A DNA stretch of 64,000 nucleotides from Promethearchaeota archaeon (GTDB lineage Archaea > Asgardarchaeota > Heimdallarchaeia > Hodarchaeales > Hodarchaeaceae): NCBI GenBank assembly GCA_048938105.1, contig JBHLMN010000005.1, forward strand, positions 209,564 through 273,563, read 5' to 3'. Positions within the stretch are counted from its first letter, which is position 1; each line of letters opens with the position of its first letter. This document shows positions 670 through 62,433 of this stretch, one piece after another. Position numbers and translations under genes: made by a program. Below the pieces are notes generated by a model that worked only from the letters and a program-made list of their open reading frames with translations, was not told the origin of the DNA and searched no databases.

Positions 670-978
670 TTATAATGGTAAATAGTGACGTATAGAAGCC
701 ACCAATAATTCAAAATCATCGAATTCAGCACTTCTGAAAGGCTTTAACAATAGTTTTTCCTTATATAGTTGTTCAAATTGTCTTTCTAGATATTGAGAGA
801 TAGCTTGAGTAATAAAATTCTTCTCTGTGACAATTAATACACAGGATACTTCGCGTCCTCTTGCTGTTATTATGTTTTTATCACCGAAAGATATCTGGTT
901 TCGTTTATGATACCAATTATCTGTAGTAATATTTCTTGATATAGAACAGACACATCCAGTATGTCGAAAAAGGCCAGA
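670..978 (-). pseudogene. Start-less 3' gene fragment, longin-like domain, truncated at the repeat site 961-985
   Basis: Open frame ...NQISFGDKNIITARGREVSCVLIVTEKNFITQAISQYLERQFEQLYKEKLL...EFDDFELLV...* with no upstream start codon; upstream stop lies inside the repeat site. Confidence 0.5.
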
Positions 979-985
979 TTACTCG
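961..985 (+). repeat. Intergenic cassette-boundary site (degenerate copy)
   Basis: ATGTCGAAAAA-GGCCAGA-TTACTCG. Confidence 0.6.
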
Positions 986-1070
986 CTAGAATTCAGAACA
1001 GAATCTTTCTCGGTGGTATTCTCTTTTTTCACCTCTCTTCTCATAAACTTCAGAATCATACTTTACTCTC

Positions 1071-1937
1071 TCATATAACCAGTAGAATAGCCCCAAATAC
1101 CATGAATACCATACCAGGTATTCGTTCTTTGATCTCCTCCTTTAAAATTAACTTGGCTAGGAAGGCGGTTACAAAAACTGATAATAATGATGCAGGTTCA
1201 GCAACTGTTACTTCTAATCCTACTATAGCAATTAATAGCATTACATATGCCCATCCATTTGATAGACCAGCTAGAATAATTGTTTTGAGGTTATTTCTAA
1301 AAGCAAGAATGCCATCATAATACCTTCTGGTAAAGATTGCTATTACAAAGAACATTAATCCAGCAAAGAAAAGGATTGAGAAAGCATAAACTCTTGAATC
1401 TATCGTTCTAATGGCATAAGTATCCACTGTTCTTCCAAGAGCTAAAAAGAATGAACCACTTATCATCAATAACGATGCCCTTGATGTTTTTATCTTTTGG
1501 ATTTTTTCGGTAATTTTTCCAGGATATAAGCAGAAAACTCCAATGAACATCGTGATCCCCCCTAATACTCGAAATACTCCTACATTCTCTCCTAGAAGAA
1601 ATAAACCTAACACTAATAACCATAATAGTGATGAATTATAGAGAGGAGCAATTAACGAAGCGTCCTCCTCTGACAAGGCTTTCACATAGGCAAAAAAACC
1701 AAAGGTGTAAATGATAGAACTGATAAATGCGAACTTTAAATCCTCTAATCCTGTAAGAAGTACTTCTATAGGGATGAACACAAAAATTGGTAATAAGAAT
1801 AATGCTCCTGTTAAAAAGAAGATAGCACTGATTATTAACGAATCATATTCTTCAAGTTGTTTTAGAAAAATTCTTTCAGCACCTAACAAAAAGATCCGAA
1901 GTGATAGGGCAATAAATGAAATTATTACAATATCCAA
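1071..1937 (-). CDS. EamA/DMT family transporter
   Basis: 288 aa, about 10 TM helices, two EamA-like halves (ALSEEDASLIAPL; LILKEEI). Confidence 0.9.
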   Translation of the reverse strand: MDIVIISFIALSLRIFLLGAERIFLKQLEEYDSLIISAIFFLTGALFLLPIFVFIPIEVLLTGLEDLKFAFISSIIYTFGFFAYVKALSEEDASLIAPLYNSSLLWLLVLGLFLLGENVGVFRVLGGITMFIGVFCLYPGKITEKIQKIKTSRASLLMISGSFFLALGRTVDTYAIRTIDSRVYAFSILFFAGLMFFVIAIFTRRYYDGILAFRNNLKTIILAGLSNGWAYVMLLIAIVGLEVTVAEPASLLSVFVTAFLAKLILKEEIKERIPGMVFMVFGAILLVI

Positions 1938-2006
1938 ATCAAAATCTTCCTAAAAATCATCAATAAGTCACTAAAAGTTGACATATTAGGATTAGGAAAA
2001 AAAAAT

Positions 2007-2025
2007 CGGTTGCATAAGCAACTAT
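2007..2025. promoter_or_regulatory. Palindromic operator GTTGC-ATAA-GCAAC upstream of the EamA gene
   Basis: cggttgcataagcaactat; near-identical copy at 2992-3010. Confidence 0.65.
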
Positions 2026-2188
2026 GTTAAAAAGCAGTAATAAATGTCAACCAAAGCTTCTTAAAGGGGAATAATTTCTGATTAAGTTATAAAAAATTGT
2101 CCATTTGAAAATTACTTACTATATGGCCATGCCTGTGATAAAATAATGATGTTACGTGGCTAAATCGGCAATCAAAGATGCTAGGAAT

Positions 2189-2878
2189 TCAATTCTCGGC
2201 TGAACTTTTCTTTAATAAAAGATATGGCATTAAGGATGTGAATAACTTGTTTTCTGCTTTTCGTAAAGTCTTTTCAACAGCATATCTAGAAACCTTAAAT
2301 TCGTCCGCAAGATCTTGAGTTCTAATTCTCCGTGGAATTTCATAATAACCTTTTTCAAAAGCTCCAATAAGAATCAATAGTTGATGTACAGTCAAATCGC
2401 TGGTTAATTCTGCTATAGAAATCATTTGGGAGGGAAATATTCCTTCAGATTCTAATTCCTTTATGGAAATAATCTTTGTTTTGGGATATGTTTGCAATAC
2501 TTGTACCACTGAGGATAAAATGGAGTTATCTAAGCATACGATTTGATAATGGCTCCATCCTCCCGAATATCTTATTGGATAAATCGATATACCTCCCTGT
2601 TGTTGAATCTGTGAATTAATTGTTTTATCACAAAGACATTTCATACTAATATACGAAATTGTTGTCGGATTACTATCAATCGTCGTAATTTTCCAATCAT
2701 GAGTATTTGGATAAAGATTGTTGGCTATTTCCATATTTTTTTCGTTAATCTCACCTGGAATCATTAGTATATCGAATTTTGAATTGCAGTATCCATAAAT
2801 CTCTTTCATTAAGAAGGATTTTGAAAAATTAAGATGAGGAGAATCGTGTTGAATTTTAATCCGGAGTTCTATTACCAT
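2189..2878 (-). CDS. Bat-like HTH_10 transcriptional regulator
   Basis: C-terminal LTVHQLLILIGAFEKGYYEIPRRIRTQDLADEFKVSRYAVEKTLRKAENKL is the HTH_10 pattern. Confidence 0.9.
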   Translation of the reverse strand: MVIELRIKIQHDSPHLNFSKSFLMKEIYGYCNSKFDILMIPGEINEKNMEIANNLYPNTHDWKITTIDSNPTTISYISMKCLCDKTINSQIQQQGGISIYPIRYSGGWSHYQIVCLDNSILSSVVQVLQTYPKTKIISIKELESEGIFPSQMISIAELTSDLTVHQLLILIGAFEKGYYEIPRRIRTQDLADEFKVSRYAVEKTLRKAENKLFTSLMPYLLLKKSSAEN

Positions 2879-2991
2879 AAATCAATCCCTATCTAGAAAT
2901 TAATTTTCGATTCAAAAATCATGTCAAAGCGGCAAATCTACTAATTCTAATTCCTTAATCAATAATTATTTTTCAAGACTTGAAAAAAAAG

Positions 2992-3010
2992 CGGTTGCTT
3001 ATGCAACCAT
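2992..3010. promoter_or_regulatory. Palindromic operator GGTTGC-TTAT-GCAACC between the regulator and the methyltransferase
   Basis: cggttgcttatgcaaccat; twin of 2007-2025, both preceded by an A-run. Confidence 0.65.
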
Positions 3011-3386
3011 AATATAAGATTACTTAAAAGATTACATTCAAAAAAAGGTGAAACGTTAATTCATTCTGAGGTGCTGCTGGTTTTTTTAAGGTGAACATAA
3101 TAAGAATTTGAGCTCTCTCTCCTCTCTTTAAGACTGGTTAGATATGAAAAAGGTATAAAAGTGGATTACTGATAATGAAACAGTAAAACAGGACACATAT
3201 ACTATGAACCTTCGCTTTATTAACAAAGATAGGACGGACAGAATGAGAGAAATCTTCAGAATGAATTCTATAATAGGTAATTCCAGAATCAAACTCTAGC
3301 AAATAACACACAAAATTATCATCACTTTCTCTTTTCTCTTACTTCTACGGAAATTTTTATAATGTCACGGAATTCTTGGATTATTT

Positions 3387-4817
3387 ATGTTAAAATTGTC
3401 CATTTTAACCCAACAAGAACAAGATTCAATTCATACCGCTGCGTTAAAGGTATTAAAAACCGTTGGTTGTGAGATTCAAGACAAGAAATGGCTGAGTCTT
3501 TTAGCGAAAAATGGAGTAAAAGTCGATTATACAACTTCGAGGGTTTTTATAACTGATGAAGACATTGTTAACTCCTCACTTGAATCTTGTGGTCACTCGA
3601 TTAAATATGCAGCTAGAGATCCCCAAAAAGATTGGATTATAGGCCAAGGAGTGGCTAAAACCCATACACCAGAAGGTATAACTCATGTCATAGAATTGGA
3701 ATCAAGATGTCACCGAGAAGCCCAATTATCTGATCTAGCAGATATTACAAAAATTTGTGACTTTCTTTCCAATGTCGATGGTATAATTGATCCTGTTGTT
3801 CCTTATGATGTTCCTCCTGCTATACAAAGTGTCATAATAACAAAGACACTGATAGAAAATACAACAAAACCAATTGATCCAGCAGGGATCGCTTTGAAGA
3901 AAGGATTTCCTTTTGTTATGCAGATGCTTACTACTCTCCTTGGAGATCGAGATATATCAGAATACAGCTTAGGTGTTGGTGTTACCGCTACAAGTCCATT
4001 ATTATTTCCATTTGACCAATTAGATACCTATTGGCAAGGAATTGAGCTAGGATCATCCTGTGATGTAGGTTCGATGCCACAGGCAGGATCGACTGCTCCT
4101 GCCTCTCTAGCAGGAACATTAACGTTGTTTGTCGCTGAAATATTAATGGGACTCATTATGGGACAGATAAAAAAGCCTGGATTATCTCAATTTGTATTTG
4201 TACGACCGTGCCTTTCGAATCCACGTTTTGGGATATTTAATTCAGGTCCGCCCGAGGTTGGATTGCTCCAGGCGGCAGCCACTCAATTCTGTAAGGAAAA
4301 ATACGGCCTTCTTGTTAATGCAGGTTGGGGTGTAAGTGATTCCCATTGTATTAGTCCCCAAGTAGCCTATGAAAAATGCTATATTTGGATGATGTCATTA
4401 GCTGCTGGTGCAGATATGATTTCGGGTGTTGGAGGCCTCGGTAGTGGGTTAATATCTTCTCCTGCACAAGTTGTTATTGATGATGAGATTATTGCTCACC
4501 TTAGACGAGGTGTTCAAGGAATTACCGTGGATGATTTCCATTTAGGCGTAGAGATGATTGAAGACACTGGTATCGGGAACACATTTCTTTTTCATCCAAA
4601 AACAAGCCAGATTATTAGGGAAGAATGGCTATTATCTGAACTACCAAGTCGGAATTCTTTTAGTACTTGGCAAAATGCAGGTGCTCTAGATCTAATTAGT
4701 AGAGCAGAAAAGAAGGCAAAAGAAATTCTTGCGAATCATGAGGTAGAAGCATTGGATCCCAGTCTAGAAGAAGATCTTAACTGTATCCTTAAAGAAGCCA
4801 AAAGAACGTTACTATAG
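3387..4817 (+). CDS. Trimethylamine methyltransferase (MttB) superfamily protein, non-pyrrolysine
   Basis: 476 aa; SIHTAALKVLKTVG, SPL, AGSTAPASLAGTL, IDDEI motifs; no in-frame amber codon. Confidence 0.9.
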   Translation: MLKLSILTQQEQDSIHTAALKVLKTVGCEIQDKKWLSLLAKNGVKVDYTTSRVFITDEDIVNSSLESCGHSIKYAARDPQKDWIIGQGVAKTHTPEGITHVIELESRCHREAQLSDLADITKICDFLSNVDGIIDPVVPYDVPPAIQSVIITKTLIENTTKPIDPAGIALKKGFPFVMQMLTTLLGDRDISEYSLGVGVTATSPLLFPFDQLDTYWQGIELGSSCDVGSMPQAGSTAPASLAGTLTLFVAEILMGLIMGQIKKPGLSQFVFVRPCLSNPRFGIFNSGPPEVGLLQAAATQFCKEKYGLLVNAGWGVSDSHCISPQVAYEKCYIWMMSLAAGADMISGVGGLGSGLISSPAQVVIDDEIIAHLRRGVQGITVDDFHLGVEMIEDTGIGNTFLFHPKTSQIIREEWLLSELPSRNSFSTWQNAGALDLISRAEKKAKEILANHEVEALDPSLEEDLNCILKEAKRTLL

Positions 4818-5466
4818 GAAAAGATACTGGACTCTAGAAATAAATTTTAAACCTTACATTAAGAAAATACTTGAAAAACCTAACTTTTCCTTAATCATTA
4901 CTCTTTTAATAAAAAAACCATTTCTTAAACATGATTTGATTGGATGGACTACATAAACCAACTCTAGATGAACACCACTTAATTCATCAAAAAGTGTCTG
5001 AATTCTTCTTATCATGATTAATTGACTTGAATCTTTAAGTATGCAAAAATTAATACTGTTGAAATTTTAGTACTAAATTGAAATCAAGAATAGGAACATC
5101 AGGAATTATAAAACTCTATCTATCCTAGAATTATAGTTGATGTACTTATCTTCTAGCGAATACCATATGGTTAGCCTTATAAAGGAAGAAAGATTACATT
5201 GTAACTGAAAATATAATGATTAAAAATTCGAATAAACCTCAGAATGAAGGAGATATCACAGATATTATAGAAGTACTAGAATTTCTAAATTATGACGGTA
5301 CAATAAGCTTTCATGATATAGATTCCACTGTAGCAGTTCATTAACATACAATATCATTTTTATAGTTAGGAAGGAGCATTTTTGCAGTTATTATCCCTAC
5401 TGATTATGATTTTCAAATATAAATCTCTGGAAAATCCAATCTAGGCTTTCATAGCAGCTATACTCA

Positions 5467-5491
5467 ATGTCAGAAAAAGCTGGATTATATT
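5467..5491 (+). repeat. Intergenic cassette-boundary site (degenerate copy)
   Basis: ATGTCAGAAAA-AGCTGGA-TTATATT. Confidence 0.65.
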
Positions 5492-5628
5492 GTAATGGTA
5501 AATGGTGATACCAAAAGTATTAGGTAAATCTTCTTAAAATTACTCCAGAGGAAATTTAAGAAGCTCTTTGGATTGGTTGTTCTCCTGATGTGAGAATTAT
5601 CACATCATAAAGAGTTTAAATGCTGGAA

Positions 5629-7047
5629 TTAACCAGGGGGGATTAAAATTCTGACCTTTGATCCTTCATTCTTTGTAGCATCAATAAAAATATTCCCACC
5701 ATGTTGATCAACAATACCTTTAGTTATTGTTAATCCTAAACCAAGGCCCCCTGCGCTATAACTTGTTACTCTAGAAATGAATGGGCTATAAACTTTGGAA
5801 ATAATTTCAGAAGGTATTCCCTCTCCATGATCCTGAACAGTAATGTTTAATCCTTTTGTTTGCCATTTTATGATTAGAACTACTGGCATGTCCCCAGGAC
5901 TATGTTTACAAGCATTCTCTAAGAGATTAAAAATAGCTTGGGAAAGGCGATCGAAATCAAAAACTAGTGGAAAAGTGGATTTTAAGCTTGGATCAATACA
6001 AATATCTGGAACAATACGTGAAGAGTAGTTCCAAGTCTTTAGATCATCCAATAATGCAGTCTTAAATTCTTTAAAGGTCACTGGTCGCTTATTTACACTA
6101 AAGATTCCTTTTTCAATCTCAGAAAGAGTATATACATCAGTAATCAGTTTTTCCAAACGATGTACATTTCTGGTAAGAGTATTAAGTATCTTTTTTCCAT
6201 AATCATCATTTTCTTTAGCTTTGTTTAATAAATAAGTACACCCTCTAATTACTGTTAGAGGGGTTCGGAGCTCGTGCGTCGTTACTTCAATAAAGCGATT
6301 TCGGAGTTTCTCTAGCAACATCTTCTCTGTTATATCGGAAAATACGGCAAGAACTCCCCAATGATTTCCGTGTGGGGTCTTCAATGATCCTAATGAGAGT
6401 ATTACTTCCTTTAGAGTCGAATCTGCACAACGTACCCTGATATGGTGAGCAAATGACCCCATGTCTACATTTTCACTGATTTGAGTTTTTATGTCTTCTA
6501 AATCATCAGAGTAAATGAGGTCCAAAATATTATTTACTTTAATTTCATTTTTAAGTTCATAACCTAGCATTTTAGCAAGAAATTGATTTAGATAAAGAAT
6601 ATTTCCATTAGATTCTGCTATTATTACACCAGAGTTAATTGATTTTAAAAATTCACGATTTTGATTAGTAACATTTTCTAATACACTATGTAATTCAACA
6701 AATTCGCTAATATCTTGAATTATTCCATAGATATACTTATTTTCGAAAATACCAACTGTGAATTGAACAGGTATAGTTTTACCATGATGAGATACCTCTA
6801 GCCTTATTGACTTTGGTTTGCTTTCATCTGAAATGGTCGAAGCGAGTAATTCTCCTTCCTGAACAAATATACTGCCTATTTTTCTGCCACGAATCTCATC
6901 AAAATCAGACACTTGGTGGAGTTCATTAAATATATCATTAGCCCAAACTAATACTCTTGTGTCCAAATCCTGAACATAAATCGCATCTTTAGATTCTTTA
7001 AGTATTCTCTTGAAAATCTTATATTCTGTTAGAGATACTTGATTCAC
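5629..7047 (-). CDS. PAS-domain sensor histidine kinase
   Basis: Two PAS-like regions, H-box THELRTPLT, N-box NLLENACKH, G boxes DHGEGI and GLGLGL. Confidence 0.95.
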   Translation of the reverse strand: MNQVSLTEYKIFKRILKESKDAIYVQDLDTRVLVWANDIFNELHQVSDFDEIRGRKIGSIFVQEGELLASTISDESKPKSIRLEVSHHGKTIPVQFTVGIFENKYIYGIIQDISEFVELHSVLENVTNQNREFLKSINSGVIIAESNGNILYLNQFLAKMLGYELKNEIKVNNILDLIYSDDLEDIKTQISENVDMGSFAHHIRVRCADSTLKEVILSLGSLKTPHGNHWGVLAVFSDITEKMLLEKLRNRFIEVTTHELRTPLTVIRGCTYLLNKAKENDDYGKKILNTLTRNVHRLEKLITDVYTLSEIEKGIFSVNKRPVTFKEFKTALLDDLKTWNYSSRIVPDICIDPSLKSTFPLVFDFDRLSQAIFNLLENACKHSPGDMPVVLIIKWQTKGLNITVQDHGEGIPSEIISKVYSPFISRVTSYSAGGLGLGLTITKGIVDQHGGNIFIDATKNEGSKVRILIPPG

Positions 7048-7260
7048 AATAGGCTCATCCTAACATTAACAGCTTGAAGTGAGTTTGCACTAATCATAAG
7101 AATCAGTAAATTTATAATTTAACTTCTTTTTTGACAAAATAATTCGTCAATAAAGACTAATACAACTAATAATATAAAAAAATATTATTTTATAATTGGA
7201 GATCCAACGATCATTTATACCGTTAATTTAAGATCTAAAATAATGGGTGTTTGTTAATTC

Positions 7261-7830
7261 GTGGCAATAATTGCAAAAATCTGCTTATGTGGCGATGGGG
7301 AGGTAGGAAAAACGTCGTTACGTAATAGATATTTAGGCCGAGGCTTTCAGAGTGATTACTTGCCAACTCTTGGTTCAGATTTTGTATCAAGAAAGGTTAT
7401 GATAAAAAGTAGTTCAGAATCTAAAGAGATTCGTTTTCAAATCTGGGATCTAGCCGGTCAACCAGCATTTAATCAAATTAGGCCCCTTTATTTTAAGCAA
7501 GCTGTAGGTTCCCTACTTATATTTGATATTACTAGACCAAAAACATTATACAATTTAGAAAGATGGGTGGATGAACTCAACCAGAATTCTGGTTGTACAA
7601 AAATGGCAATAATTGTACTTGGCAATAAATCGGATTTAAAGGATGGAAGTACAAATCAGGTTACAAGAGAAGAGGCAAAAAAGTTCATTAAAAACCAGTT
7701 AACAAATCAATCTTATAATTGCATTGATAATACAATACCTTTTTTCGAAACTTCAGCAAAAACAGGTGAAAATGTTAATCAAGCATTCGAAGAACTAGGA
7801 TTAAAAATATATTCAAATTTTTATTATTGA
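7261..7830 (+). CDS. Rab-like small GTPase (Ras superfamily)
   Basis: G1 GDGEVGKT, G2 YLPTLG, G3 WDLAGQ, G4 NKSD, G5 ETSAK; no C-terminal prenylation cysteines. Confidence 0.95.
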   Translation: MAIIAKICLCGDGEVGKTSLRNRYLGRGFQSDYLPTLGSDFVSRKVMIKSSSESKEIRFQIWDLAGQPAFNQIRPLYFKQAVGSLLIFDITRPKTLYNLERWVDELNQNSGCTKMAIIVLGNKSDLKDGSTNQVTREEAKKFIKNQLTNQSYNCIDNTIPFFETSAKTGENVNQAFEELGLKIYSNFYY

Positions 7831-7832
7831 CA

Positions 7833-7904
7833 ATGATAAAGATTTGCTGAATAATAGAACTACTGAACAAAATTTCCTTATGTGGAGAAGGAGGTGTGAG
7901 AACA
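7833..7904 (+). pseudogene. Decayed fragment of a second small-GTPase N-terminus
   Basis: KISLCGEGGVRT (7869-7904) vs KICLCGDGEVGKT of the upstream gene; in-frame stop upstream. Confidence 0.5.
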
Positions 7905-8315
7905 ATTTTCCCTATGATGTATATTTCTCTTACCTTATTTTTGGACTATCTTAACAAAAACGTATTTAAATCTGAATTCTAAATTAAATGATCGGTTCTA
8001 CAGAGGAATTTTCAATTTTGTTGTGAGAAGACAATAGCACGTTTCCCCAAAGGGTCTGAACTTTGGAAACACTAAGTTTTTTCCTTTGATAATATGATTC
8101 TTTATACTTTGCTATATCCTTCAGTTGATTGGGAAGTAATTGATGCCTATAAAACGCAATGATTATCGGATTAGTGGTGTCATGCAACTTCTAGCATCAC
8201 TATTCCAAGGTCATCATATCAAGGGAACCAGAGAAATAATTTCTAAATCTGATCATCTTAAGTAATGAAGAAATAGCATCGCACAATCTGCCCTATATTG
8301 TTGCTAGACATCCCA

Positions 8316-8340
8316 AGTTCACAAAAGGCTGGATTAACAC
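8316..8340 (+). repeat. Intergenic cassette-boundary site
   Basis: AGTTCACAAAA-GGCTGGA-TTAACAC. Confidence 0.9.
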
Positions 8341-8369
8341 AAACAATTGGTAAAGAAAACAATAATAAA

Positions 8370-8945
8370 TTAGATTTTTTTGATTGCTTTTATGAAGAAC
8401 CATTTTTCATGATTTTCTGTAATCTCAATGTGAAAATTGGTTTCAACGAGTGTTTTTTTTATTTCTGCTAAACTACGATTCTTTCCTCTTGAACCATAGC
8501 CTGTTTTAATTTTTTTACCATTAGGTAGGATGATTTCTAGTTTTATAAGAAATAAATCTTTGTCATTAGATATTTTTGCATCCCAAATCCAAAATTCTCC
8601 GTTATTCTTTAAAACACGATACACCTCTTCACATATTTTTCCAAAGGTCTCCATAGACATATACATTCCACTGAAAAATGTTGTAGCATTGTCAAAATGA
8701 CCATCAGAATAAGAAAGATCAGTTGCATCAGCCAGAATCCAGTTTGCAGTTGGAGCATTAGGTTTTGCCTCATCAATTTCGTGCTGATTCTTGTCTATAG
8801 CAGTAATTCTTTCATTTCCTATTTGGGCAATAATTCCTTCCCCACCTCCTCCGATATCAATCACTGAACCATCTGGAATTGAATCAATAGTAATTTTGTG
8901 AGATGGTGTGAGAAAATACTTAATATATGGTATATATCTGCTCAT
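8370..8945 (-). CDS. Class I SAM-dependent methyltransferase
   Basis: VIDIGGGGEG motif I, ADATDL, RVLKNNG. Confidence 0.9.
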   Translation of the reverse strand: MSRYIPYIKYFLTPSHKITIDSIPDGSVIDIGGGGEGIIAQIGNERITAIDKNQHEIDEAKPNAPTANWILADATDLSYSDGHFDNATTFFSGMYMSMETFGKICEEVYRVLKNNGEFWIWDAKISNDKDLFLIKLEIILPNGKKIKTGYGSRGKNRSLAEIKKTLVETNFHIEITENHEKWFFIKAIKKI

Positions 8946-9339
8946 TATTTCTCACACTGGGTATTTTACAAACATACAAAGTTGTGTATGAAATTTACAG
9001 AAGTATCTTTTATAGTTACTCTTTCCTGCAAATTTCGTTCAACATGGAATCATGGATTGGTTAATGGATGATTGGAATAGTAATTAGTAGTATTGGGTAT
9101 TCTTGGGGTGTAACTACAAGAAAGCTGACTAGGCAATAGCTTTACGACTAATTTATCAGTTGATATCAAAAATTAAATCGGATATTCCAATATGACGGGA
9201 GGATATATAAGTAAGAAAGTTTTTCAAGACATTCCAATCTAAAAGGCCAAATTATGTAAGAATCTTTGAATGGATACCAAAAATAAATAGCAAAAATGCA
9301 TAAATAAATAGCAAAAGTAGAGAGAAGTAGGAAACTTCA

Positions 9340-10209: not shown

Positions 10210-10241
10210 ATAAAATTACATAATTATTACCTAATTTGCTA

Positions 10242-10266
10242 ATGTCGGAAAAGGCGTGATTAAGAT
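10242..10266 (+). repeat. Intergenic cassette-boundary site (degenerate copy)
   Basis: ATGTCGGAAAA-GGCGTGA-TTAAGAT. Confidence 0.65.
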
Positions 10267-10303
10267 TATCAATAAATCAAACGTATCATTGAATCACAGG
10301 TGA

Positions 10304-51026: not shown

Positions 51027-51087
51027 CATCAATTCACCGAAATCATCAATCACTCAGGTAAATTACTATTAGGATTTTTTACAGCTT

Positions 51088-52462: not shown

Positions 52463-52611
52463 TAACCTTATTATCAACTCTTTCAATAATAGTCTTTCTG
52501 GGGAAAAAACAAGTGGCATTATTAACCCGTAAATAAACCCTTCTTTAATTTGTCTCCCCTTTGTACTGTTTTATGTTCATTTCCTTATGTATCGATTTCA
52601 ATTTCAAAAGA

Positions 52612-52630
52612 TTAGAACAACTTGTTCTAA
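52612..52630. promoter_or_regulatory. Perfect inverted repeat TTAGAACAA-C-TTGTTCTAA
   Basis: Seen directly, about 80 bp upstream of the peptidase. Confidence 0.45.
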
Positions 52631-52708
52631 AAAATAGAATAAAAAAACACTTTTTCCTCCCCAAACCTAACATAGATTTTCAAATTTATCCATTTAGTGG
52701 TAATCTAA

Positions 52709-54355: not shown

Positions 54356-54430
54356 AAAAATCTAGTCAATTTTTCCGTTTATTGTTTAAAAAATAATGTC
54401 TTGTCAGTATATTGGATAGGATTAGCATTT

Positions 54431-54455
54431 GTGTTGCAAAAGGCTGGATTAGACT
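54431..54455 (+). repeat. Intergenic cassette-boundary site
   Basis: GTGTTGCAAAA-GGCTGGA-TTAGACT. Confidence 0.9.
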
Positions 54456-54498
54456 ATAAAATTACATAATTAGGAATATATATATTTGAAAGCAAGAC

Positions 54499-54996
54499 AT
54501 GATTCTCAAAGGAAAAGCGTGGTCTCACTGGAAGGAAAATCAAATGATGGAAGATTTATTTGATGTTCTTAGTTCTGATGATAGAACTTTGGTTTCAGAA
54601 TTATTTGAATTCGCTATTGACAATAATTTAAAATGTAACAGATCTAAAACGAAAGATATTATCTATGTGTTCTCACATCCTAAAACAAAGGAAAGAATTA
54701 TGAAATTTTCTCATAGTAAAAAACAAGGATTTATGGTTTCTCTCAGGTTCAATTTATCTGAATCCTATTCGACTTTTTTCAGCGAAGCAATTCGTAAAAC
54801 AATTGAAGAATATAATTATCGTTATACTGGCTGTTATCCGAGATGTAATAAATGCGATGGTACTAAAGGATATATCTATACATATCCTGATGGAAGACAA
54901 TTTTTTCGATGCTATCAAGAACTTATAAACCTTCCAAATGTTTCTTTTAGAGAATTAGACGAACTGAAAGCTCTAATAATGACTCAAATTACTTAA
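54499..54996 (+). CDS. Hypothetical protein with Cys cluster
   Basis: GCYPRCNKC...FRC. Confidence 0.7.
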   Translation: MILKGKAWSHWKENQMMEDLFDVLSSDDRTLVSELFEFAIDNNLKCNRSKTKDIIYVFSHPKTKERIMKFSHSKKQGFMVSLRFNLSESYSTFFSEAIRKTIEEYNYRYTGCYPRCNKCDGTKGYIYTYPDGRQFFRCYQELINLPNVSFRELDELKALIMTQIT

Positions 54997-55066
54997 TCAT
55001 AGGTACTCAAACATATGTTTGTAATGGTATTTCATTTGAACTATGACAAAGAAATAGTATTCATTA

Positions 55067-55091
55067 TTGTCATAAAAGACTGGAAAGTGGA
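55067..55091 (+). repeat. Intergenic cassette-boundary site (variant)
   Basis: TTGTCATAAAA-GACTGGA-AAGTGGA. Confidence 0.55.
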
Positions 55092-55134
55092 AATTTTCAG
55101 TGAGTCAATGATGTACTTGAGGAGGTAGAATCCA

Positions 55135-55761
55135 TCGAAAATCGAACCGTTTGAAAAATATACAGACCAATATGAAGATTGGTTTGAGACACATAAATTT
55201 GTTTATAAATCAGAGCTGAGGGCTATAAAAAATCAATTGCCTAAGAGGGAAGAAGGGATTGAAATCGGTGTGGGAAGCGGTAGATTCGCTGCGCCTTTGG
55301 GTATTAAATTTGGAATTGATCCATCTAAAAAAATGAGACAAATAGCCCAAAGTAGGGGTATTGAAGTGATTAACGGTGTTGCAGAGAATTTACCTTTTAG
55401 GGATAATACTTTTACCTTTACACTGATGGTAACGACAATTTGCTTTTTAAATGATATAAAAACCGCTTTTCAAGAAGCACGCAGGGTGTTAAAGCCAAGA
55501 GGATGCTTAATAATAGGATTTATCGACAAAACTAGCACTATTGGAGAACTATATCAAAAACATAAACAGGAGAATGTGTTCTATAATGTAGCAACGTTTT
55601 ATTCAGTTGAGGATGTTGTTCTTCTCCTGAAACAAATTGGTTTTAAGAACTTTCAGTACATTCAAACAATTTTTAATAATTTAAGCGAAATAAAAGATAT
55701 TGAACCTATTAAAAAGGGGTACGGGGAAGGTTCATTTGTTGTAGTTAAAACATTCAAATAA
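55135..55761 (+). CDS. Class I SAM-dependent methyltransferase; frame extends upstream of 55237 without an ATG
   Basis: SKIEPFEKYTDQYEDWFE...EIGVGSGRF; GGAGG at 55121. Confidence 0.8.
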   Translation, partial: SKIEPFEKYTDQYEDWFETHKFVYKSELRAIKNQLPKREEGIEIGVGSGRFAAPLGIKFGIDPSKKMRQIAQSRGIEVINGVAENLPFRDNTFTFTLMVTTICFLNDIKTAFQEARRVLKPRGCLIIGFIDKTSTIGELYQKHKQENVFYNVATFYSVEDVVLLLKQIGFKNFQYIQTIFNNLSEIKDIEPIKKGYGEGSFVVVKTFK

Positions 55762-55979
55762 TGAATCCGAGAGCTATTTTTTCATTAAATGTTTTATAGG
55801 ATTAGGAGACTTGAATGAACAGCTAAATACTTGATTAATAGTTTTCTTACCTCATATGCTTTGAAAAATATAGTTTTCAGGGACAAAACCAATAATAGTT
55901 GAAGTAGGATTACATGAACTCTCATTAGGATCTATTTAAAAAATAAGGCAAACATAACTTCATTCACCAAAAAGACTAA

Positions 55980-56900
55980 ATGGGACACAACTGTTCTTTA
56001 GTTCAAGAACTAGTTGGATATGTAAAGATGGTCATTAAAAAAGTCAGTTTTAAAGAAGCAGTTTCCTTATTGGACTCTAAAACATGTTCTGAAGGAGCAC
56101 ACATGGACATAGAATTTGAATGTCTCGCTTACGAAAGGTGTTCGGGAAAAAAAACGTATGGACCAGGACCATACCGATTATTACGAGTCACAGATGACCA
56201 AAATTCAAATGTCAGAACACTATATGTCTGGGGTGACCATAGATATGCACATAATATAAATCTGGCTGCTTCTCTTAAGAAAGGCGATAGATTATTAGTA
56301 ATAAATCCTTCAAAACCCCGAAATAGTAGCTATTCAAGAGATGAACGGGGAAATAATGCTTTTTGGGTTGAACAATGGGATGAAGGATCTGCAGAGGAGG
56401 GATCACGATTAGTTAAAATAACTGAATCAAGAGAGATATGCTGTGTTTGCAGGCGGCCCATAAAATCAGAAGAGGAAATTATTTATTGTCCTACGTGTCA
56501 GAATCCTTTTCATCTACCTCATTTTGCTGAAACCCTTAAATTGACTGGAAAATGCCCGATTTGTGCAACAAAAAGCTCTTTCAATGAAATTATGAAGAAC
56601 ATTGCAGAGATCTTCGATTTTCCAAAAAATAAAGCTATTGAGACGTTCACTTTAGCACGAAGAACTGATACTTTTCACCTAAAAGATAATCGAAAGTCAT
56701 CAAATTATGAAGTTTTTCCTTTAACCTCAACCAATAGGGACAAATTGAAAAAAGCCTGTTCTTATATTCAAACACGAACAGGAGCAAAGGTCAAAATTCT
56801 ATCTAAATTAGGAAGACCATTCATTAAAATCTCCTACCAAGACGGAATTACACTAGACTTGCTAGAAAAAATTATCAGACAATATGAACAGACCCAATAA
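55980..56900 (+). CDS. Protein with RING-like zinc finger
   Basis: CCVC-x12-CPTC-x4-H-x2-H-x10-CPIC. Confidence 0.75.
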   Translation: MGHNCSLVQELVGYVKMVIKKVSFKEAVSLLDSKTCSEGAHMDIEFECLAYERCSGKKTYGPGPYRLLRVTDDQNSNVRTLYVWGDHRYAHNINLAASLKKGDRLLVINPSKPRNSSYSRDERGNNAFWVEQWDEGSAEEGSRLVKITESREICCVCRRPIKSEEEIIYCPTCQNPFHLPHFAETLKLTGKCPICATKSSFNEIMKNIAEIFDFPKNKAIETFTLARRTDTFHLKDNRKSSNYEVFPLTSTNRDKLKKACSYIQTRTGAKVKILSKLGRPFIKISYQDGITLDLLEKIIRQYEQTQ

Positions 56901-57105
56901 TATAATGGAAGCATTCAATATACTGTGGCTAACCAAAAGGCCCAATATGTGATAATTCTGTCATTAAATCAATTAATTTCGTATATCATGTACTTTGAAG
57001 AAATCTAGTCCGAAAAGGAGATTGATAAGGTAGTTAAGTTCTTGAAATAATTTTGATTATGAGGATTCTATGAAATGCTTTAACCCATATGTGAACTACG
57101 ATTAA

Positions 57106-57197
57106 ATGTTGTCTATGGCTGGTTTAGATTAGAAAACTATATACCACGGCATACGCTGTGAAACTAATCAAGATTAATTCAAAGGCTAGATTGGTTT
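57106..57197 (+). repeat. Two degenerate cassette-boundary sites (57106-57130, 57173-57197)
   Basis: ATGTTGTCTAT-GGCTGGT-TTAGATT; ATTAATTCAAA-GGCTAGA-TTGGTTT. Confidence 0.55.
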
Positions 57198-57250
57198 TTA
57201 AAAAGACAAGATTTCAATATCAAATAAACCGATACAGAGTGGAAGTATAA

Positions 57251-57742
57251 ATGAATACAGAAAAGATTTGTACAGCATTAGAAGAGCAGTATGGAGCGGC
57301 ATTTAATACCCTCGAAAAAATAATTAACATTTGTCCAAATGAAATCTGGATAAATTCTCCTAATAAACCTCCAATTTATGGAGTGGTTAATCACATCCTT
57401 TACTTTGTTGATTTATATTTTAGTAAATCAAAAGAGGAACGGGAAAGCTACAAACCCAAATTTCCTGATGAACAAGACGATATGCATATGTTAAGAACTC
57501 TAGAAAAAAATGATTTGCTAGAATACACAAAGGAGATGAGGAGTAAAGCAAAAAAGTTATTCGCTAGTATGACATTAAAGCAGTTACAAGGTGAATCAGT
57601 TTTTGAGTGGCATGGATCATCTCTTCTAAGCTCTCTTTTGTATAATCTTAGACATGTAATGTTACATATAGGTGCTTTACAGGTTAGATTACGTCATTAT
57701 GGTATTGACGAAAAATTTTGGGTTAGTAATGCTGATTTATAG
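57251..57742 (+). CDS. DinB superfamily protein
   Basis: CPNEIW, HILYFVDLY, YNLRHVMLHIGAL. Confidence 0.85.
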   Translation: MNTEKICTALEEQYGAAFNTLEKIINICPNEIWINSPNKPPIYGVVNHILYFVDLYFSKSKEERESYKPKFPDEQDDMHMLRTLEKNDLLEYTKEMRSKAKKLFASMTLKQLQGESVFEWHGSSLLSSLLYNLRHVMLHIGALQVRLRHYGIDEKFWVSNADL

Positions 57743-57830
57743 AATAATTATTTCAGAAGAAGTAGTAGATCATCAGAAATATGGAAAGGAAATTATATCG
57801 CTTTAAAATTTCTAGTTAAATCCTGTCTAA

Positions 57831-57855
57831 ACTCCACAAAAGTCTGGATTAGCAC
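57831..57855 (+). repeat. Intergenic cassette-boundary site
   Basis: ACTCCACAAAA-GTCTGGA-TTAGCAC. Confidence 0.8.
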
Positions 57856-57937
57856 TACTGTTTGACATTATACAAAAGACACTATTAAAAATGAAAATCT
57901 GATCGAAGGGTTAATGAAAAACGTGTTTTATTATTCA

Positions 57938-58306
57938 TTATTCACTAGTTAATACTTCATCTCTATCGATTACCTCTAGTTTAAAGATGACGGGTCTGAT
58001 TCCATCAGTACAGCAGGTTATGTAGGAATTATCGGTTTTCATCCAGGTCCAAATTTTACCAGTCTTACCAATATAATTTTTAAAATTCCCTCCTTGCATG
58101 AGGGTTAGGAGGAATCTGTGGATATCATGCCAAGCAAAGCTACACGGAAAAGATTCAGGTTTGGCTGTTGGGCTTTCTGTTATAAATTCTTGACCATCTT
58201 CGAATTCTCCACATTTACCTGTTTTCATTTGAACATATTCTTTTGCTAGATCTTCATGAAATGTTCGTTTCAGTACTGTAATCTTACATTTTACCATTTT
58301 ACTCAC
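57938..58306 (-). CDS. TIGR04076 family protein
   Basis: KCKITVLKR, FEDGQEF, CSFAW.DI, CCTDGIRPVIFKLE. Confidence 0.85.
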   Translation of the reverse strand: MSKMVKCKITVLKRTFHEDLAKEYVQMKTGKCGEFEDGQEFITESPTAKPESFPCSFAWHDIHRFLLTLMQGGNFKNYIGKTGKIWTWMKTDNSYITCCTDGIRPVIFKLEVIDRDEVLTSE

Positions 58307-58598
58307 TATAAAAAGAAATTTTATGAAAATAGGAAACTCCTATCAAATTATTCTCGAAAATAATTAAGTAGGTCTCATCATTTAAACTTAAGGAAAGAGG
58401 TAATTATCCCATTTTGTCGAATACAATGCAAAACCTTACTTAAAAATTGTATTTTTTTCTCTACTGAATATATCAAGGAGCGAAGAAGTGTCCGAATATA
58501 CTCATAATTCCATTACCTATACTAAAGTAGCTCTTTTTAACAAAGAGAAGAGACAATAGAGGATGGAATGATAGTTAATATTCTAATATAGAGATGCA

Positions 58599-59612
58599 TT
58601 GCAAATACTTTATATTATTCCTTTTTTTTCTACTGTTTTTATGTCAACACAAATTTTACTGACTGGTGCTTTTGGTAATATAGGTGAGAGTACATTATTA
58701 GCTCTTCTTGACAAGAAATATGATGTTAAATGTTTCGATATTGAGAATGAAACAACAAGAAAACAAAGTTCAATATTATCCCAGAGTGGCCAATTTGAAA
58801 CCATTTGGGGGGATATCACAGATAAAGAGTCCATAAGACCAGCGATCCAAGGGGTCGATTGTATTCTACATCTTGCAGCGATTCTTCCTCCTGCCAGTGA
58901 AAAAAACCCAGAAGTTACGGAGAAAGTTAATGTTGGGGGCACACGAAATATTATTGAATTGGCTAGCGAACTAGAACCTAAACCCAAATTCGTTTATGCG
59001 AGCTCAGTTTCAGTTCATGGACCACGGCCCGCTTCAGTATCCCCCCCAGTTACCGCTACTGCCCCTAAAAAGCCAACCGATAAATATACCCATACTAAAG
59101 TTGCATGTGAGGAGTTAATATTACAGAGTGAGCTTCCTTGGACTATTCTTCGTTTTGCTGCAGTTCCTCCGCTTAAATTAGGTGGAGACCTTGATCCTAT
59201 GCTGTTTGAAACTCCTGCTGATCAGAGAATTGAATTTGCTCATACCAGAGATGTTGGCCAAGCTGTTGCCAATTCAGTTGAAGCTGACACCGAAAAAAAG
59301 ATTCTACTGATAGGGGGCGGAAAGGAATGCCAGATGTTGCAATATGACTTTCTCAATGGTCTTTTCCAAGTGATGGGAATAGGAAAACTACCTCGTGAAG
59401 CTTTTAAAGTTCCTGAAAAGGATGATGACTGGTATTATACGGATTGGATGGACACAGAAGAGTCCCAAGCACTTCTTAACTATCAAAAACATTCATACGA
59501 GGATTACCTAAATGATATGAAAAAGACTCTTGGATTCCGACGGTACTTCATGAAGCTTATGGGCCCGCTTATTAGAAGTCGGTTATTAAAACAATCACCC
59601 TATTACAAATAA
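58599..59612 (+). CDS. NAD-dependent epimerase/dehydratase, extended SDR (probable start 58641)
   Basis: TGAFGNIG, HLAA, YTHTK. Confidence 0.9.
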   Translation: MQILYIIPFFSTVFMSTQILLTGAFGNIGESTLLALLDKKYDVKCFDIENETTRKQSSILSQSGQFETIWGDITDKESIRPAIQGVDCILHLAAILPPASEKNPEVTEKVNVGGTRNIIELASELEPKPKFVYASSVSVHGPRPASVSPPVTATAPKKPTDKYTHTKVACEELILQSELPWTILRFAAVPPLKLGGDLDPMLFETPADQRIEFAHTRDVGQAVANSVEADTEKKILLIGGGKECQMLQYDFLNGLFQVMGIGKLPREAFKVPEKDDDWYYTDWMDTEESQALLNYQKHSYEDYLNDMKKTLGFRRYFMKLMGPLIRSRLLKQSPYYK

Positions 59613-59723
59613 TCCTAATTATCAACATTAAAAAGGCATATACCTCGATTTGCACCGCGTACTATCGAGATTGGTATTAATTTGTTTAGCTAAAAAATGA
59701 TGGTTATTTGTTATTATATTTCA

Positions 59724-59748
59724 ATGTCGTCTATGGCTGATTTAGAAT
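59724..59748 (+). repeat. Intergenic cassette-boundary site (variant)
   Basis: ATGTCGTCTAT-GGCTGAT-TTAGAAT. Confidence 0.6.
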
Positions 59749-59815
59749 ACAAAAGTATATACCCATTCCAGAGATATTGTTTTCATCAGCTTTTTCTAAA
59801 CATTCTTCCTCTTTT

Positions 59816-60850
59816 TCACTCTATACTAATTACGACTCGACCAGAAGAATGTCCTGTTTCATAATGTCGATGAGCTTCGATAATTTGGCTTAATGGATAA
59901 ATAGTATCAATTACTGGTTTAATTTTACCAGCTTCAATCCAACTCCTAATAAGTTCCATAGCTGAAGGACTTTCATCTGCAGTTCCAGTTTTGAATCTCT
60001 TATTTCGCGTTATAATATGAAAAATATTTCTTAGACTATTAGCTGGATTATTTGAGATGTAGATTCCATCCGAAGTTAGAATACTCTTGCAATTAGAAAG
60101 ATTCATGACTGCGACTATGTCTAGTATAATGTCATATTTAGTCCCATTTTTCGTATAATCTTCCTTTGAATAATCAATTACATGATCCGCTCCAATACTT
60201 TTTACTAATTCAATATTATTTGGTCCACAGACACTAGTAACCTCGGCACCATAGACATTCTTAGCCATTTGCACAGCAAAAGTACCTATTCCTGACGACC
60301 CTCCAATAATGAGGACTTTTTGACCTTTTTTTGGTGTCGCTAAATCTCTAAATGCTTTTAATGCGGGGGTAGAACCACCTGGCACCGCAGCAGCTTCAAG
60401 AAAATTCAGATTTGCTGGTTTTTTTGCCAAATGAGTTTCTGGAATAGCAACATACTCAGCAGTTGTTCCAGCATTTTCTGAAAATCCATAAACATGGTCA
60501 CCGACTTTCCATTTTATAACATCTTTTCCTAATGAAACAATTTCACCAGAAAATCCTGATCCAGGGATTTTTTGTTTAGGTTTGCGGATACCTCCATAAT
60601 ATAATCGGAGAAAGAATCCCATTACTTTCTTTAGACCAAAAGATACTGCTTTAGGAGCTTTTCCCCCACGATGAACGACATCTCCTGTATTAATTGAGGT
60701 ACCATAATTTCTTATTAGAACTTCATCATCTTTTGGTTGAGGAACGCTTATTTCTTTTATCTCAAGAACCTCAGGAGACCCATATTTTGTAATCCAAGCT
60801 GCTTTCATATGCTTATTCCCTTTATTAATGTTAACCATTATTATCACCAT
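59816..60850 (-). CDS. MDR family NAD(P)-dependent oxidoreductase
   Basis: YGSPEVL, GGSSGIGTFAVQMAK, GADHVIDY. Confidence 0.9.
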   Translation of the reverse strand: MVIIMVNINKGNKHMKAAWITKYGSPEVLEIKEISVPQPKDDEVLIRNYGTSINTGDVVHRGGKAPKAVSFGLKKVMGFFLRLYYGGIRKPKQKIPGSGFSGEIVSLGKDVIKWKVGDHVYGFSENAGTTAEYVAIPETHLAKKPANLNFLEAAAVPGGSTPALKAFRDLATPKKGQKVLIIGGSSGIGTFAVQMAKNVYGAEVTSVCGPNNIELVKSIGADHVIDYSKEDYTKNGTKYDIILDIVAVMNLSNCKSILTSDGIYISNNPANSLRNIFHIITRNKRFKTGTADESPSAMELIRSWIEAGKIKPVIDTIYPLSQIIEAHRHYETGHSSGRVVISIE

Positions 60851-60964
60851 ATATTCTAGTATTCTATTCCGTTAATCTCATACATAGAGAACAAATTGTA
60901 TCTTTTGCGAGAGAAGCTTATTACGACAGGAACGGTATATAATCATAGCTCAAGATTTAGATGA

Positions 60965-60989
60965 ACTTCGAAAAAGGCTGGATTAACAC
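60965..60989 (+). repeat. Intergenic cassette-boundary site
   Basis: ACTTCGAAAAA-GGCTGGA-TTAACAC. Confidence 0.9.
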
Positions 60990-61000
60990 TTAAAGCAAAT

Positions 61001-62221
61001 TCAATCCTGGTTTTGTCGTTGTAACATATTTCTTTCCACCCATGAAGAAAGCCATTTCTGAGCTAAGTGGTACTGGGATTTATCATTTTTGTGAACACAA
61101 GTGACCAAACCTGGTTCGGATCTACCAGGATGAATATGCATAGCATAAATACACGAATTACATGAGATACATTCCGGTGTCTGTCCGCCCCGACCTTCTA
61201 ACCAGCGATTCGGTAGATCTGGTTCACGGATTAGGGGGCGCGATAATGCAATGAAATCTACTTTACCTTGATTAACAATTTCCTCCAGTCGTTCTATGTC
61301 CCGGTTTCCACCGACTAAAATGACAGGAATGTCTAGATCGAGTTCTTCAGCGTATTTTAGAAAATAACTTTGCTTTTCAGGATTTTTGATACGTGTATGG
61401 GATTCAGGTGCTGGAACAGGCCGAAATCCAAGCTCCTTTTCACTTCTAAACAGACACTCCCACATACCACCACTTACTTCGATGGCATCGACACCTGTCT
61501 GTTCAATTGCTCGCGCAAGGTCAGGAAAAGTATCAATATTGATCCCACCTACAAGGTAATCTGTACAGTTCATTTTGACCAGGATAGGAAAATTAGCGAC
61601 GGATTGTCTAGCTTTGGAAACAATTTCACAGATGATTCTCACCCTATTCGATGTTGAACCTCCATACACATCGTTTCGACGGTTTGTATAAGGCGAAAGG
61701 AAGCGACTCAGCAATCCGCCATGCGCCGCGTGAAGTTGAACACCATCAAAACCAGCTTTTTTCATATCTACAATAGCTTCAACAAAGCAATCGACAATAT
61801 CACTAATCTCATCCAAAGTAAGCGGCCGTAGCTTCCTTCTTGAGTGAGGTGAGTTAATCACAGAAGGCCTAGCGGTCAGGTTCCCGTTTTCGAGCTGGGC
61901 TATTATTTTACATTCCTGTTTTGAGCTGTGGACTATTTGGGGCATTTGTTCAATACCATTGACCCGTAGGTCAGTGTAGTTAGATATCCACTTGTTGGAA
62001 CCATCATTCACTACTTTCTCCTGAAAAACAGGGAATCCCCCTGTAATAATTAGTCCTACCCCACCAAGAGCGAGTTCTTGGTAGAGATTGAGTACCTCAT
62101 CTGTCATCTTGCGTTTATTCAATATGGATGGATCCCAGGTAGCGGAACGAACGAAACGGTTAGGTAACATTAAAGAGCCAATTTTTCCCTCTGAGAATAC
62201 TCTATAATTATACCTTTTCAT
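61001..62221 (-). CDS. NADH:flavin oxidoreductase (Old Yellow Enzyme family)
   Basis: AGFDGVQLHAAHG, FLSPYTNRRNDVYGGS, CISCNSC. Confidence 0.95.
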   Translation of the reverse strand: MKRYNYRVFSEGKIGSLMLPNRFVRSATWDPSILNKRKMTDEVLNLYQELALGGVGLIITGGFPVFQEKVVNDGSNKWISNYTDLRVNGIEQMPQIVHSSKQECKIIAQLENGNLTARPSVINSPHSRRKLRPLTLDEISDIVDCFVEAIVDMKKAGFDGVQLHAAHGGLLSRFLSPYTNRRNDVYGGSTSNRVRIICEIVSKARQSVANFPILVKMNCTDYLVGGINIDTFPDLARAIEQTGVDAIEVSGGMWECLFRSEKELGFRPVPAPESHTRIKNPEKQSYFLKYAEELDLDIPVILVGGNRDIERLEEIVNQGKVDFIALSRPLIREPDLPNRWLEGRGGQTPECISCNSCIYAMHIHPGRSEPGLVTCVHKNDKSQYHLAQKWLSSWVERNMLQRQNQD

Positions 62222-62408
62222 TAAGAACCTCTAAAGAATCCGTTTTAATCCTTTCTTCCCGTGTGACCATTTTTACCAGTTTCTTTGAAGTCTATCAAGA
62301 TACTTCTTTTACATTTGAAATAAATCCATTGGCTTTTTATAATTCTCCTTCTAGGCATGAGTAGTAAAATGGTAGAGTTATAGTTTTTTGAAAACCAAAT
62401 TTGCTGGA

Positions 62409-62433
62409 AAGCCGCCAATAGCTGGATTTACGC
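62409..62433 (+). repeat. Intergenic cassette-boundary site (degenerate copy)
   Basis: AAGCCGCCAAT-AGCTGGA-TTTACGC. Confidence 0.45.

Follow-up and report, generated by a model that had tools for sequence, protein, structure and literature searches.

The DNA analyzed here is the final 64 kb of a 273.6 kb contig (C39) from a Promethearchaeota archaeon of the order Hodarchaeales. The genome (G000) is 5.85 Mb long and lies on 65 contigs. We refer to the whole 64 kb stretch as the window. It holds an array of short sites that resemble dif, point in the same direction, and lie between modules of one to about six genes (Table 1). The array probably continues on contigs C43, C5, and C13. Genes lie on both strands, and several modules hold three to six of them.

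The modules carry accessory genes of many kinds. We scanned 50 open reading frames (ORFs) of the window with Pfam. Of these, 11 have no assigned family, and six non-nested ORFs were outside the scan. Transport and membrane proteins include EamA, MFS, and MscL transporters or channels and an RDD membrane protein. Regulatory and signaling proteins include HTH_10, MarR, PadR, and ArsR regulators, a PAS histidine kinase, a Ras-like GTPase, and an MCP. The enzymes are MttB, four methyltransferases, PAP2, a ResIII helicase, a radical-SAM protein, PI-PLC, RidA, an inositol monophosphatase, PNPOx, a nitroreductase, an acyltransferase, two GNATs, NUDIX, a metallo-beta-lactamase, DinB, an epimerase, an alcohol dehydrogenase, and an old-yellow-enzyme. 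Surface proteins are represented by a 1420-residue LamG/BNR protein and by SBBP and FG-GAP repeat proteins, and defense-type cargo by a SAVED protein and an MNT/HepT pair. Every cargo type named in the initial annotation of this DNA (GNATs, methyltransferases, DinB, RidA, a toxin–antitoxin pair, and SAVED) was thus confirmed by Pfam, with MNT/HepT as the toxin–antitoxin pair. No recombinase, transposase, or homing endonuclease was named among the 50 scanned ORFs.

To avoid circularity, the position matrix for the sites was built solely from 91 sites of other species, with a cut-off of at least 8 bits. Scanning both strands, a check that the initial annotation had suggested, gave 20 matches on the + strand of the window and one on the − strand. 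The background in the rest of the genome is 0.4 matches per 64 kb per strand. The sole − strand match in the window (10.7 bits) lies within a long ORF, which agrees with the earlier statement that no convincing reverse-strand copy exists. All 11 copies first described as near-exact (8316, 19411, 26917, 38298, 39927, 40915, 42829, 48598, 51088, 54431, and 60965) are present at these positions, that at 39927 being split. They score 23.7–39.1 bits with the matrix from other species, apart from the split one, whose left piece gives 15.8 bits. The list of 14 variants held up in part. Nine are sites (961, 5467, 10242, 38476, 50211, 57106, 57831, 59724, and 62409). The other five had to be dropped: 9234 and 57173 score too low, the core at 31971 has a 1-bp deletion, and only the left arm and spacer remain at 50279 and 55067. 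The consensus, first given with gaps, is gap-free. The alignment of 35 strong copies from the genome has a core of about 26 bp, ACGTCGTAAAAGGCTGGATTAACACC, with most information at GGCTGGATT. Conservation falls off abruptly at both edges of the 26–28 bp motif.

The 35 strong copies (at least 20 bits) in G000 all lie, with one exception, on C39 (in the window only), C43, C5, C13, and the first 75 kb of C63. Weaker matches elsewhere in the genome sit in long ORFs and are due to chance. The strong copies are restricted to accessory islands, and the genome-wide spread that the initial annotation had also considered was not seen. The 20 kb upstream of the window (C39:189564–209563, L031) contain no sites. 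This upstream DNA is almost unmatched in other species of the genus, so the variable region extends beyond the array.

All strong copies in the window are intergenic. Across this and other species, seven of 147 sites fall in an open frame of at least 100 amino acids, compared with 79 % of random positions in the same DNA, which supports the earlier claim that the sites lie between genes. The window sites adjoin the 3′ and 5′ ends of both + and − strand genes at distances from 10 bp to more than 1 kb. There is thus no fixed relation to transcription starts. Adjacent sites are co-oriented in a ratio of 151:8 (111:5 when G000 is excluded), with a median spacing of 1.9 kb. The sequence TCGNNAAAGGCTGGATTA, with at most one mismatch, is found in 17 of the 20 other species of the genus, clustered and co-oriented on each contig. 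Four other families of the class gave just two isolated one-mismatch matches, one genome each, both in the same family (f4). Reversed-pattern controls gave at most one match per genome.

The site is best read, from its sequence, as an 11-6-11 arrangement: a strong arm of the type ATGTCGTAAAA, the overlap GGCTGG, and a weaker arm, ATTAACACCA. The 7-bp spacer proposed at first is better read as this 6-bp overlap. The right arm matches the inverted strong arm at six of 10 positions. Among 194 sites that have the strong arm and GGCTGG, the second arm is of the type ATTARCAC in 65, TTTAGATT in 66, ATTGATAA in 10, and other in 53. The TTTAGATT-type arm is accompanied by a conserved extension, AAAAGTATATAC-N4-GTATATAC. 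A complete two-armed GGCTGG site was found once only, in species G017 (L084). The initial annotation had also proposed that the array works without attC hairpins. When 12 sites were folded together with 60 nt of flank on either side, they did no better than shuffled sequences (z from −0.96 to +1.01), and the matrix scan found no reverse-strand partner motif of the kind that makes up the inverted R′′/R′ pair of attC in the window. Both results agree with that proposal.

The point of exchange was located by comparing the sites with their flanks. We used 223 sites from 780 kb of array DNA in at least 14 species and scored homology over 300 bp on each flank, with the site itself excluded. Fifteen pairs of sites share the left flank only, 15 the right flank only, and one both flanks. 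For the left-only pairs, the mismatch in the left arm, overlap, and right arm is 0.08, 0.08, and 0.39, respectively. For the right-only pairs, the values are 0.34, 0.12, and 0.08, and for unrelated pairs they are 0.32, 0.08, and 0.47. An ungapped version of the comparison gave the same picture. Each arm segregates with its own flank, so the partner switch falls between positions 10 and 17, in the overlap GGCTGG. The homology between species therefore breaks within the site, as expected from the original idea of oriented core sites of the tyrosine-recombinase type that delimit mobile modules.

A hybrid site is present in the metagenome from which the genome was obtained. One contig joins position 40927 of the window to 57844, at a depth of 9.8 compared with 14–22 for the main path. 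The hybrid consists of the left arm of the site at 40915, the overlap, and the right arm of the site at 57831. The joint lies within GG|CTGGATTA, and only the eight bases CTGGATTA are common to both parents. We assumed that the Logan contigs are built from 31-mers, 31 being stated only as the index-word size and as a bridging figure. On this assumption, eight shared bases are far too few, and an assembly chimera would be ruled out. The contig is a site-to-site recombinant whichever its origin. A contig from a mangrove sample joins the site at 51088 to the cassette to the right of 48598; it has 20 unmatched bases at the joint, and we counted it as weak. A further contig from the source sample, at a depth of 7.4, links 48463 back to position 40748, with neither end at a site.

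Single modules of the window recur on many different contigs across the genus. The module 40022–40936 corresponds to positions 2981–3895 on contig C47 of species G003, with 95 % identity, and has sites at both ends there (2970 and 3874). Its flanks in G003 are unrelated to those in the window and match quite different parts of G000. Shared cassettes are 89–97 % identical to G000 in G003, 83–90 % in G011, and 88–95 % in G009, and the collinear core DNA of these species is 84, 74, and 74.5 % identical, respectively. For several cassettes, the similarity between species is thus far above that of the genomes in which they reside. The array contigs of the three species match G000 in patches only, which are scattered over C39, C63, C5, and C13 and are sometimes inverted.

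Table 1. Sites and associated features of the array in the window (bits: score with the matrix built from other species).
Feature	Position	Strand	Remarks
Cassette array	961..62436	+	Co-oriented dif-like sites between modules of 1 to ~6 genes; reaches contig end
Weak or decayed site	961..988	+	ATGTCGAAAAA-GGCCAG-ATTACTCGCT; 9.9 bits
Weak site	5467..5494	+	13.5 bits
Site	8316..8343	+	32.4 bits
Weak site	10242..10269	+	Spacer GGCGTG; 14.5 bits
Site	19411..19438	+	Spacer GGTTGG; 34.7 bits
Site	26917..26944	+	39.1 bits
Site	38298..38325	+	26.0 bits
Weak site	38476..38503	+	11.3 bits
Split site, left piece	39927..39942	+	Arm GTGTCGTCAAA + GGCTG
80-bp inserted element + 4-bp duplication GCTG	39943..40026	+	12-bp terminal inverted repeats CAGTACTTCGCA / TGCGAAGTACTG
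Split site, right piece	40027..40038	+	G + ATTAACACAT
Site	40915..40942	+	37.1 bits; left arm joined to right arm of 57831 in variant contig of source sample
Site	42829..42856	+	27.7 bits
Site	48598..48625	+	Spacer GGATGG; 29.2 bits
Weak site	50211..50238	+	16.2 bits
Site	51088..51115	+	28.1 bits
Site	54431..54458	+	23.7 bits
Class-2 site	57106..57133	+	Right arm TTTAGATTAG then AAAACTATATAC; 16.6 bits
Site	57831..57858	+	Spacer GTCTGG; 28.5 bits
Class-2 site	59724..59751	+	18.3 bits
Site	60965..60992	+	34.8 bits
Weak site	62409..62436	+	19.6 bits

The split site is a genuine site that is interrupted by an 80-bp element, and its uninterrupted form is present in G003 (L021:2970). The element has perfect terminal inverted repeats and sits in the overlap of the site. 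It is present in a single copy in G000, and in many species of the genus 53–68 nt of it recur at 88–96 % identity. Over the whole window, no Rfam family attained its gathering score, and a scan of positions 39880–40080 only, around the insert, at a permissive E-value gave no match. Two half-sites (50279–50305 and 55067–55093) consist of the strong arm and GGCTGG or GACTGG followed by AAAGKGGRAATTTT. Each is directly upstream of a + strand gene, and a search for further copies of this form found none elsewhere. The class-2 sites (57106 and 59724 in the window and 66 in other species, for example L042:3461) carry a conserved extension of about 35 bp, TTTAGATTAC-AAAAGTATATAC-N4-GTATATAC. This extension may be a B recognition element (BRE)/TATA-like sequence or may hold binding sites for an accessory protein. 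In mirror-type sites, N11-GGCTGG-TTTGACGACAT, the strong arm is on the opposite side of the overlap. These are found at C63:18971, 21010, 24524, 27149, and 42007 and at C37:107154. Their orientation in the C63 array is opposite to that of the main sites, and the window has none. The polarity of the C63 array flips in the interval 34566–50610, which contains several TIR-domain genes and genes for a 1315-residue metallophosphatase-domain protein, MatE, and a glycosyltransferase.

Elsewhere in G000, the left arm is also found in inverted pairs, ATGTCGYMAAA-N6-TTTKRCGACAT. Examples are ATGTCGTAAAA-tcatca-TTTTGCGACAT (C14:250384) and TCGTCGCAAAA-tggcac-TTTGACGACAT (C63:92680). A spacing of 6 is preferred, with 14 pairs compared with 1–7 at the other spacings (2–12 were examined). 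In 19 of 20 species of the genus, each genome has 2–11 copies of the pattern GTCGYMAAA-N6-TTTKRCGAC, and reversed-pattern controls gave 0–1. Apart from one of two sister-family genomes, the pattern is nearly absent outside the genus. Palindromic 11-6-11 sites in intergenic DNA of G000, all with different spacers, are located at C14:250384, C63:92680, C14:86371, C11:34800, C2:22048, C28:1273, C47:22210, C4:240, C53:77808, and C53:230098. Those at C14:86371 and C28:1273 have the right arm and the right flank in common and differ in the spacer and the left arm.

One form of the inverted site, with the spacer CAAGAC, recurs in at least eight species. The copies in G009 (both flanks) and G019 (one flank) match the same region of G000, on contig C36, and those in G017 and G013 have no match to G000. 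The CAAGAC site is a candidate for the chromosomal dif and looks as a true dif would. It was not found intact in G000. The syntenic place (C36:44483–44510 and 45301–45328) has two one-armed sites, GCGAGTTAAAA-CAAGAC/CAAGGC-..., and about 4.6 kb of extra DNA, possibly from an insertion at dif itself. A chromosomal dif is a single-copy site at a conserved locus; the array site, with 35 strong copies on five contigs of G000, is not. Published archaeal dif sites have the 11-6-11 arrangement, and XerA cleaves at the borders of the spacer (PMC2958812, PMC3646895). The dif of Thermococcus kodakarensis is TTTTGATATAA-TGTACC-TTATATGACAA and is bound by XerA in chromatin immunoprecipitation sequencing (PMC11840125).

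The initial annotation placed the recombinase gene outside the window. This agrees with what we found, as neither the window nor any examined array encodes one. A XerA- or IntI-like recombinase at an array end, where the initial annotation had proposed to look, was not seen in any array examined. When 651 array ORFs of many species were clustered, the most repeated families were all cargo, with no recombinase among them. There are three Phage_integrase matches in G000, none on an array contig. Genome searches for Phage_integrase, resolvase, and TnpB found nothing on array contigs except TnpB on C13. The serine recombinases of G000 adjoin TnpB genes, and we read these pairs as IS607 elements.

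Two intact tyrosine recombinases are encoded in G000. The first, on C14 (173919–174839), passes the NCBIfam XerA model with 282.7 bits (cut-off 220) and matches XerA of Pyrococcus abyssi (PDB ID: 4A8E) with an E-value of 1.9e-59. It has a single-copy orthologue, with 70–91 % identity, in 18 of the 20 other species. In the species G001 (C5:210961–212088) and G016 (C16:37629–38753), XerA lies in a frame of 428 amino acids that gives two overlapping alignments to the 306-residue protein, which could be an insertion or a partial duplication. These are the two species without an array-type site at one mismatch or less. The second recombinase, on C56 (201303–202136), passes no curated cut-off and scores below every curated Xer one. 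Its orthologues (at least 40 % identity) are found only in G012, G002, G008, and G017; relatives with 33 % identity are in G005 and in a second match of G012. The integron-integrase model gives the two intact recombinases 172.9 and 63.6 bits (cut-off 265), and no IntI-type integrase lies beside the array.

Taken together, we think it likely that these asymmetric, dif-like core sites form a module array that is worked by a tyrosine recombinase acting in trans, most likely XerA. The 11-bp strong arm is predicted to bind the recombinase, and the 6-bp overlap would give the site its direction. The presumed second arm is weaker, ATTAACACCA here and TTTAGATTAC in other species. Sites in direct orientation would divide a stretch of the chromosome into modules of 0.7–11 kb with accessory genes. 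A tyrosine recombinase encoded elsewhere would exchange strands within the overlap, so that modules could be lost, gained, and exchanged among arrays, strains, and species of the genus, presumably by way of an excised circular cassette. Judged by sequence comparison, host XerA is the likeliest enzyme. As the candidate dif has the same strong arm, XerA is also the simplest choice. A wider proposal is that an entire genus within the Hodarchaeales runs chromosomal, integron-like capture arrays (about 190 kb in G000) with its housekeeping XerA and one-armed GGCTGG sites, and without a dedicated integrase. We put this forward tentatively and with rather less confidence.

Several observations weigh against the action of XerA on such an array. 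The second arm is canonical in none of the 194 sites with a strong arm and GGCTGG, and its match to the inverted strong arm is partial, so a simple reaction of a XerA homodimer is not obvious. An array with so many active XerA sites in direct repeat would be expected to be unstable, unless recombination is infrequent or kept under control. GGCTGG sites are found only in this genus although XerA is near-universal in archaea, and the search gave no array-type site in one species that has XerA (G010, 87 % complete). The hybrid contig could derive from another strain in the sample instead of from excision. None of the assembled contigs of the source sample shows a circular junction at a site, no small circular contig carrying one site is present in this assembly, and there is no matched pair of empty and occupied sites among the 223 sites.

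The sites could be as described but be served by a dedicated integrase, either the Xer-like C56 protein or one borne on a plasmid, a virus, or unassembled DNA, with host XerA uninvolved. We regard this as unlikely, although it is the strongest of the alternatives. The C56 protein is a second intact tyrosine recombinase that falls below the curated Xer cut-offs. The weak arms (ATTAACACC and TTTAGATTAC) are conserved yet unlike the XerA-type arm, and a second protein could bind there. The genus restriction noted above holds for the GGCTGG sites and not for XerA. However, orthologues of the C56 protein occur in four other species only, and they were not found in G009 and G011 (both 96 % complete), G018 (94 %), or G013 (91 %), which are rich in sites. 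No site is near the C56 gene, and no array carries a recombinase.

It is very improbable that the motif mainly binds a protein or serves in regulation, for example as an operator, a terminator, or a polar site for chromosome organization or replication, with the breakpoints left by occasional recombination, homologous or illegitimate. In favor of this reading are the strict polarity and intergenic position of the motif, the BRE/TATA-like class-2 extension, the palindromic relatives with variable spacers, which could be operators, and the single flip of orientation, on C63. Yet the polarity is independent of gene direction, the distances to the 5′ and 3′ ends of genes vary, and the motif is confined to accessory islands. 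The interval of the C63 flip holds no recombinase gene and no replication-initiator (Orc1/Cdc6) gene. Homologous recombination would not be efficient over a core of 13–17 bp, and nevertheless 30 of the 31 flank-sharing pairs switch there, and an 11-6-11 arrangement with a conserved, asymmetric 6-bp center is a hallmark of tyrosine-recombinase sites.

That the repeats are fossil copies of a gene's final codons, stacked as a homing-endonuclease element invaded again and again, can practically be dismissed: + frame 3 does read xVKGWINT with synonymous-looking variation (GGC/GGT/GGA and AAC/AAT) and a stop soon after, but the in-frame run upstream is 0–34 codons, neither the copies of this genome nor 147 sites of other species extend upstream into a long frame, conservation ends sharply at both edges, no homing-endonuclease domain was found in the 50 scanned ORFs of the window, and a gene tail cannot explain why inverted 11-6-11 sites have the same left arm. 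A coding reading of the motif itself (VKGWINT) was also considered and rejected, as the motif is contained in no long frame.

The array of presumed XerA-type sites favored here shares features with several known systems. In Acinetobacter, pdif (dif) modules are acted on by XerC and XerD (PMC6449649, PMC11705084, PMC12907356). There too, accessory modules, often with toxin–antitoxin pairs, are bounded by 28-bp, 11-6-11 Xer-type sites, the same module is found in different contexts, and the modules hold no recombinase, with host Xer presumed to act in trans. The pdif modules have inverted sites (alternating C/D and D/C) and are found mainly on plasmids of one bacterial genus. In contrast, the sites described here are in direct orientation, form long chromosomal arrays of about 20 sites per 64 kb, have one strong arm, and belong to an archaeal host with a single XerA.

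Integrons and clusters of attC sites lacking integron integrases (CALIN), including archaeal integrons (PMC9668308), likewise have long arrays of co-oriented sites between unrelated accessory cassettes. The adjacent integrase is absent in CALIN as it is here, the types of cargo are similar, and cassettes are common to several species. Unlike an integron, the present array has no IntI, no attC hairpin, and no inverted R′′/R′ pair, and its sites are best read as double-stranded, core-type 11-6-11 sites. Genes in either direction are present, and many modules comprise several of them with promoters of their own, whereas integron cassettes are co-oriented and mostly promoterless, with a single ORF.

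Integrative mobile elements exploiting Xer (IMEX), such as the CTX phage and the gonococcal island (PMC5357621), resemble the present system in their asymmetric, partly degenerate dif-like sites and in the use of the host dimer-resolution recombinase, which is presumed here. Asymmetric sites may permit the exchange of one strand pair only (PMC5357621). An IMEX is a single element at the chromosomal dif, whereas the arrays lie away from the candidate dif and have the overlap GGCTGG, not CAAGAC. With the archaeal XerA/dif system, the array shares the 11-6-11 arrangement, an arm that matches at six of 11 positions (TTTTGATATAA in T. kodakarensis compared with ATGTCGTAAAA), and the presence of a bona fide XerA. 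The archaeal dif is single and nearly symmetrical, whereas the present sites are multi-copy, asymmetric, and array-forming. We found no description of such arrays in the literature searched, which leaves out most subscription journals. As neither an integron integrase nor an attC structure is needed, software for finding integrons will miss the array.

Gene gain in Asgard archaea is central to models of the origin of eukaryotes. This locus offers a concrete and testable mechanism, in which oriented sites would make a region of the chromosome a store of exchangeable modules that carry genes for defense, detoxification, transport, and signaling. If the wider XerA proposal is correct, the arrays would add a third, independent route to the capture of cassettes, next to IntI/attC integrons and the pdif modules of bacteria, and would be the first case in which direct-repeat Xer sites build long chromosomal arrays. 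The locus would carry the idea of Xer modules from Acinetobacter plasmids to archaeal chromosomes and may point to a second role for XerA.

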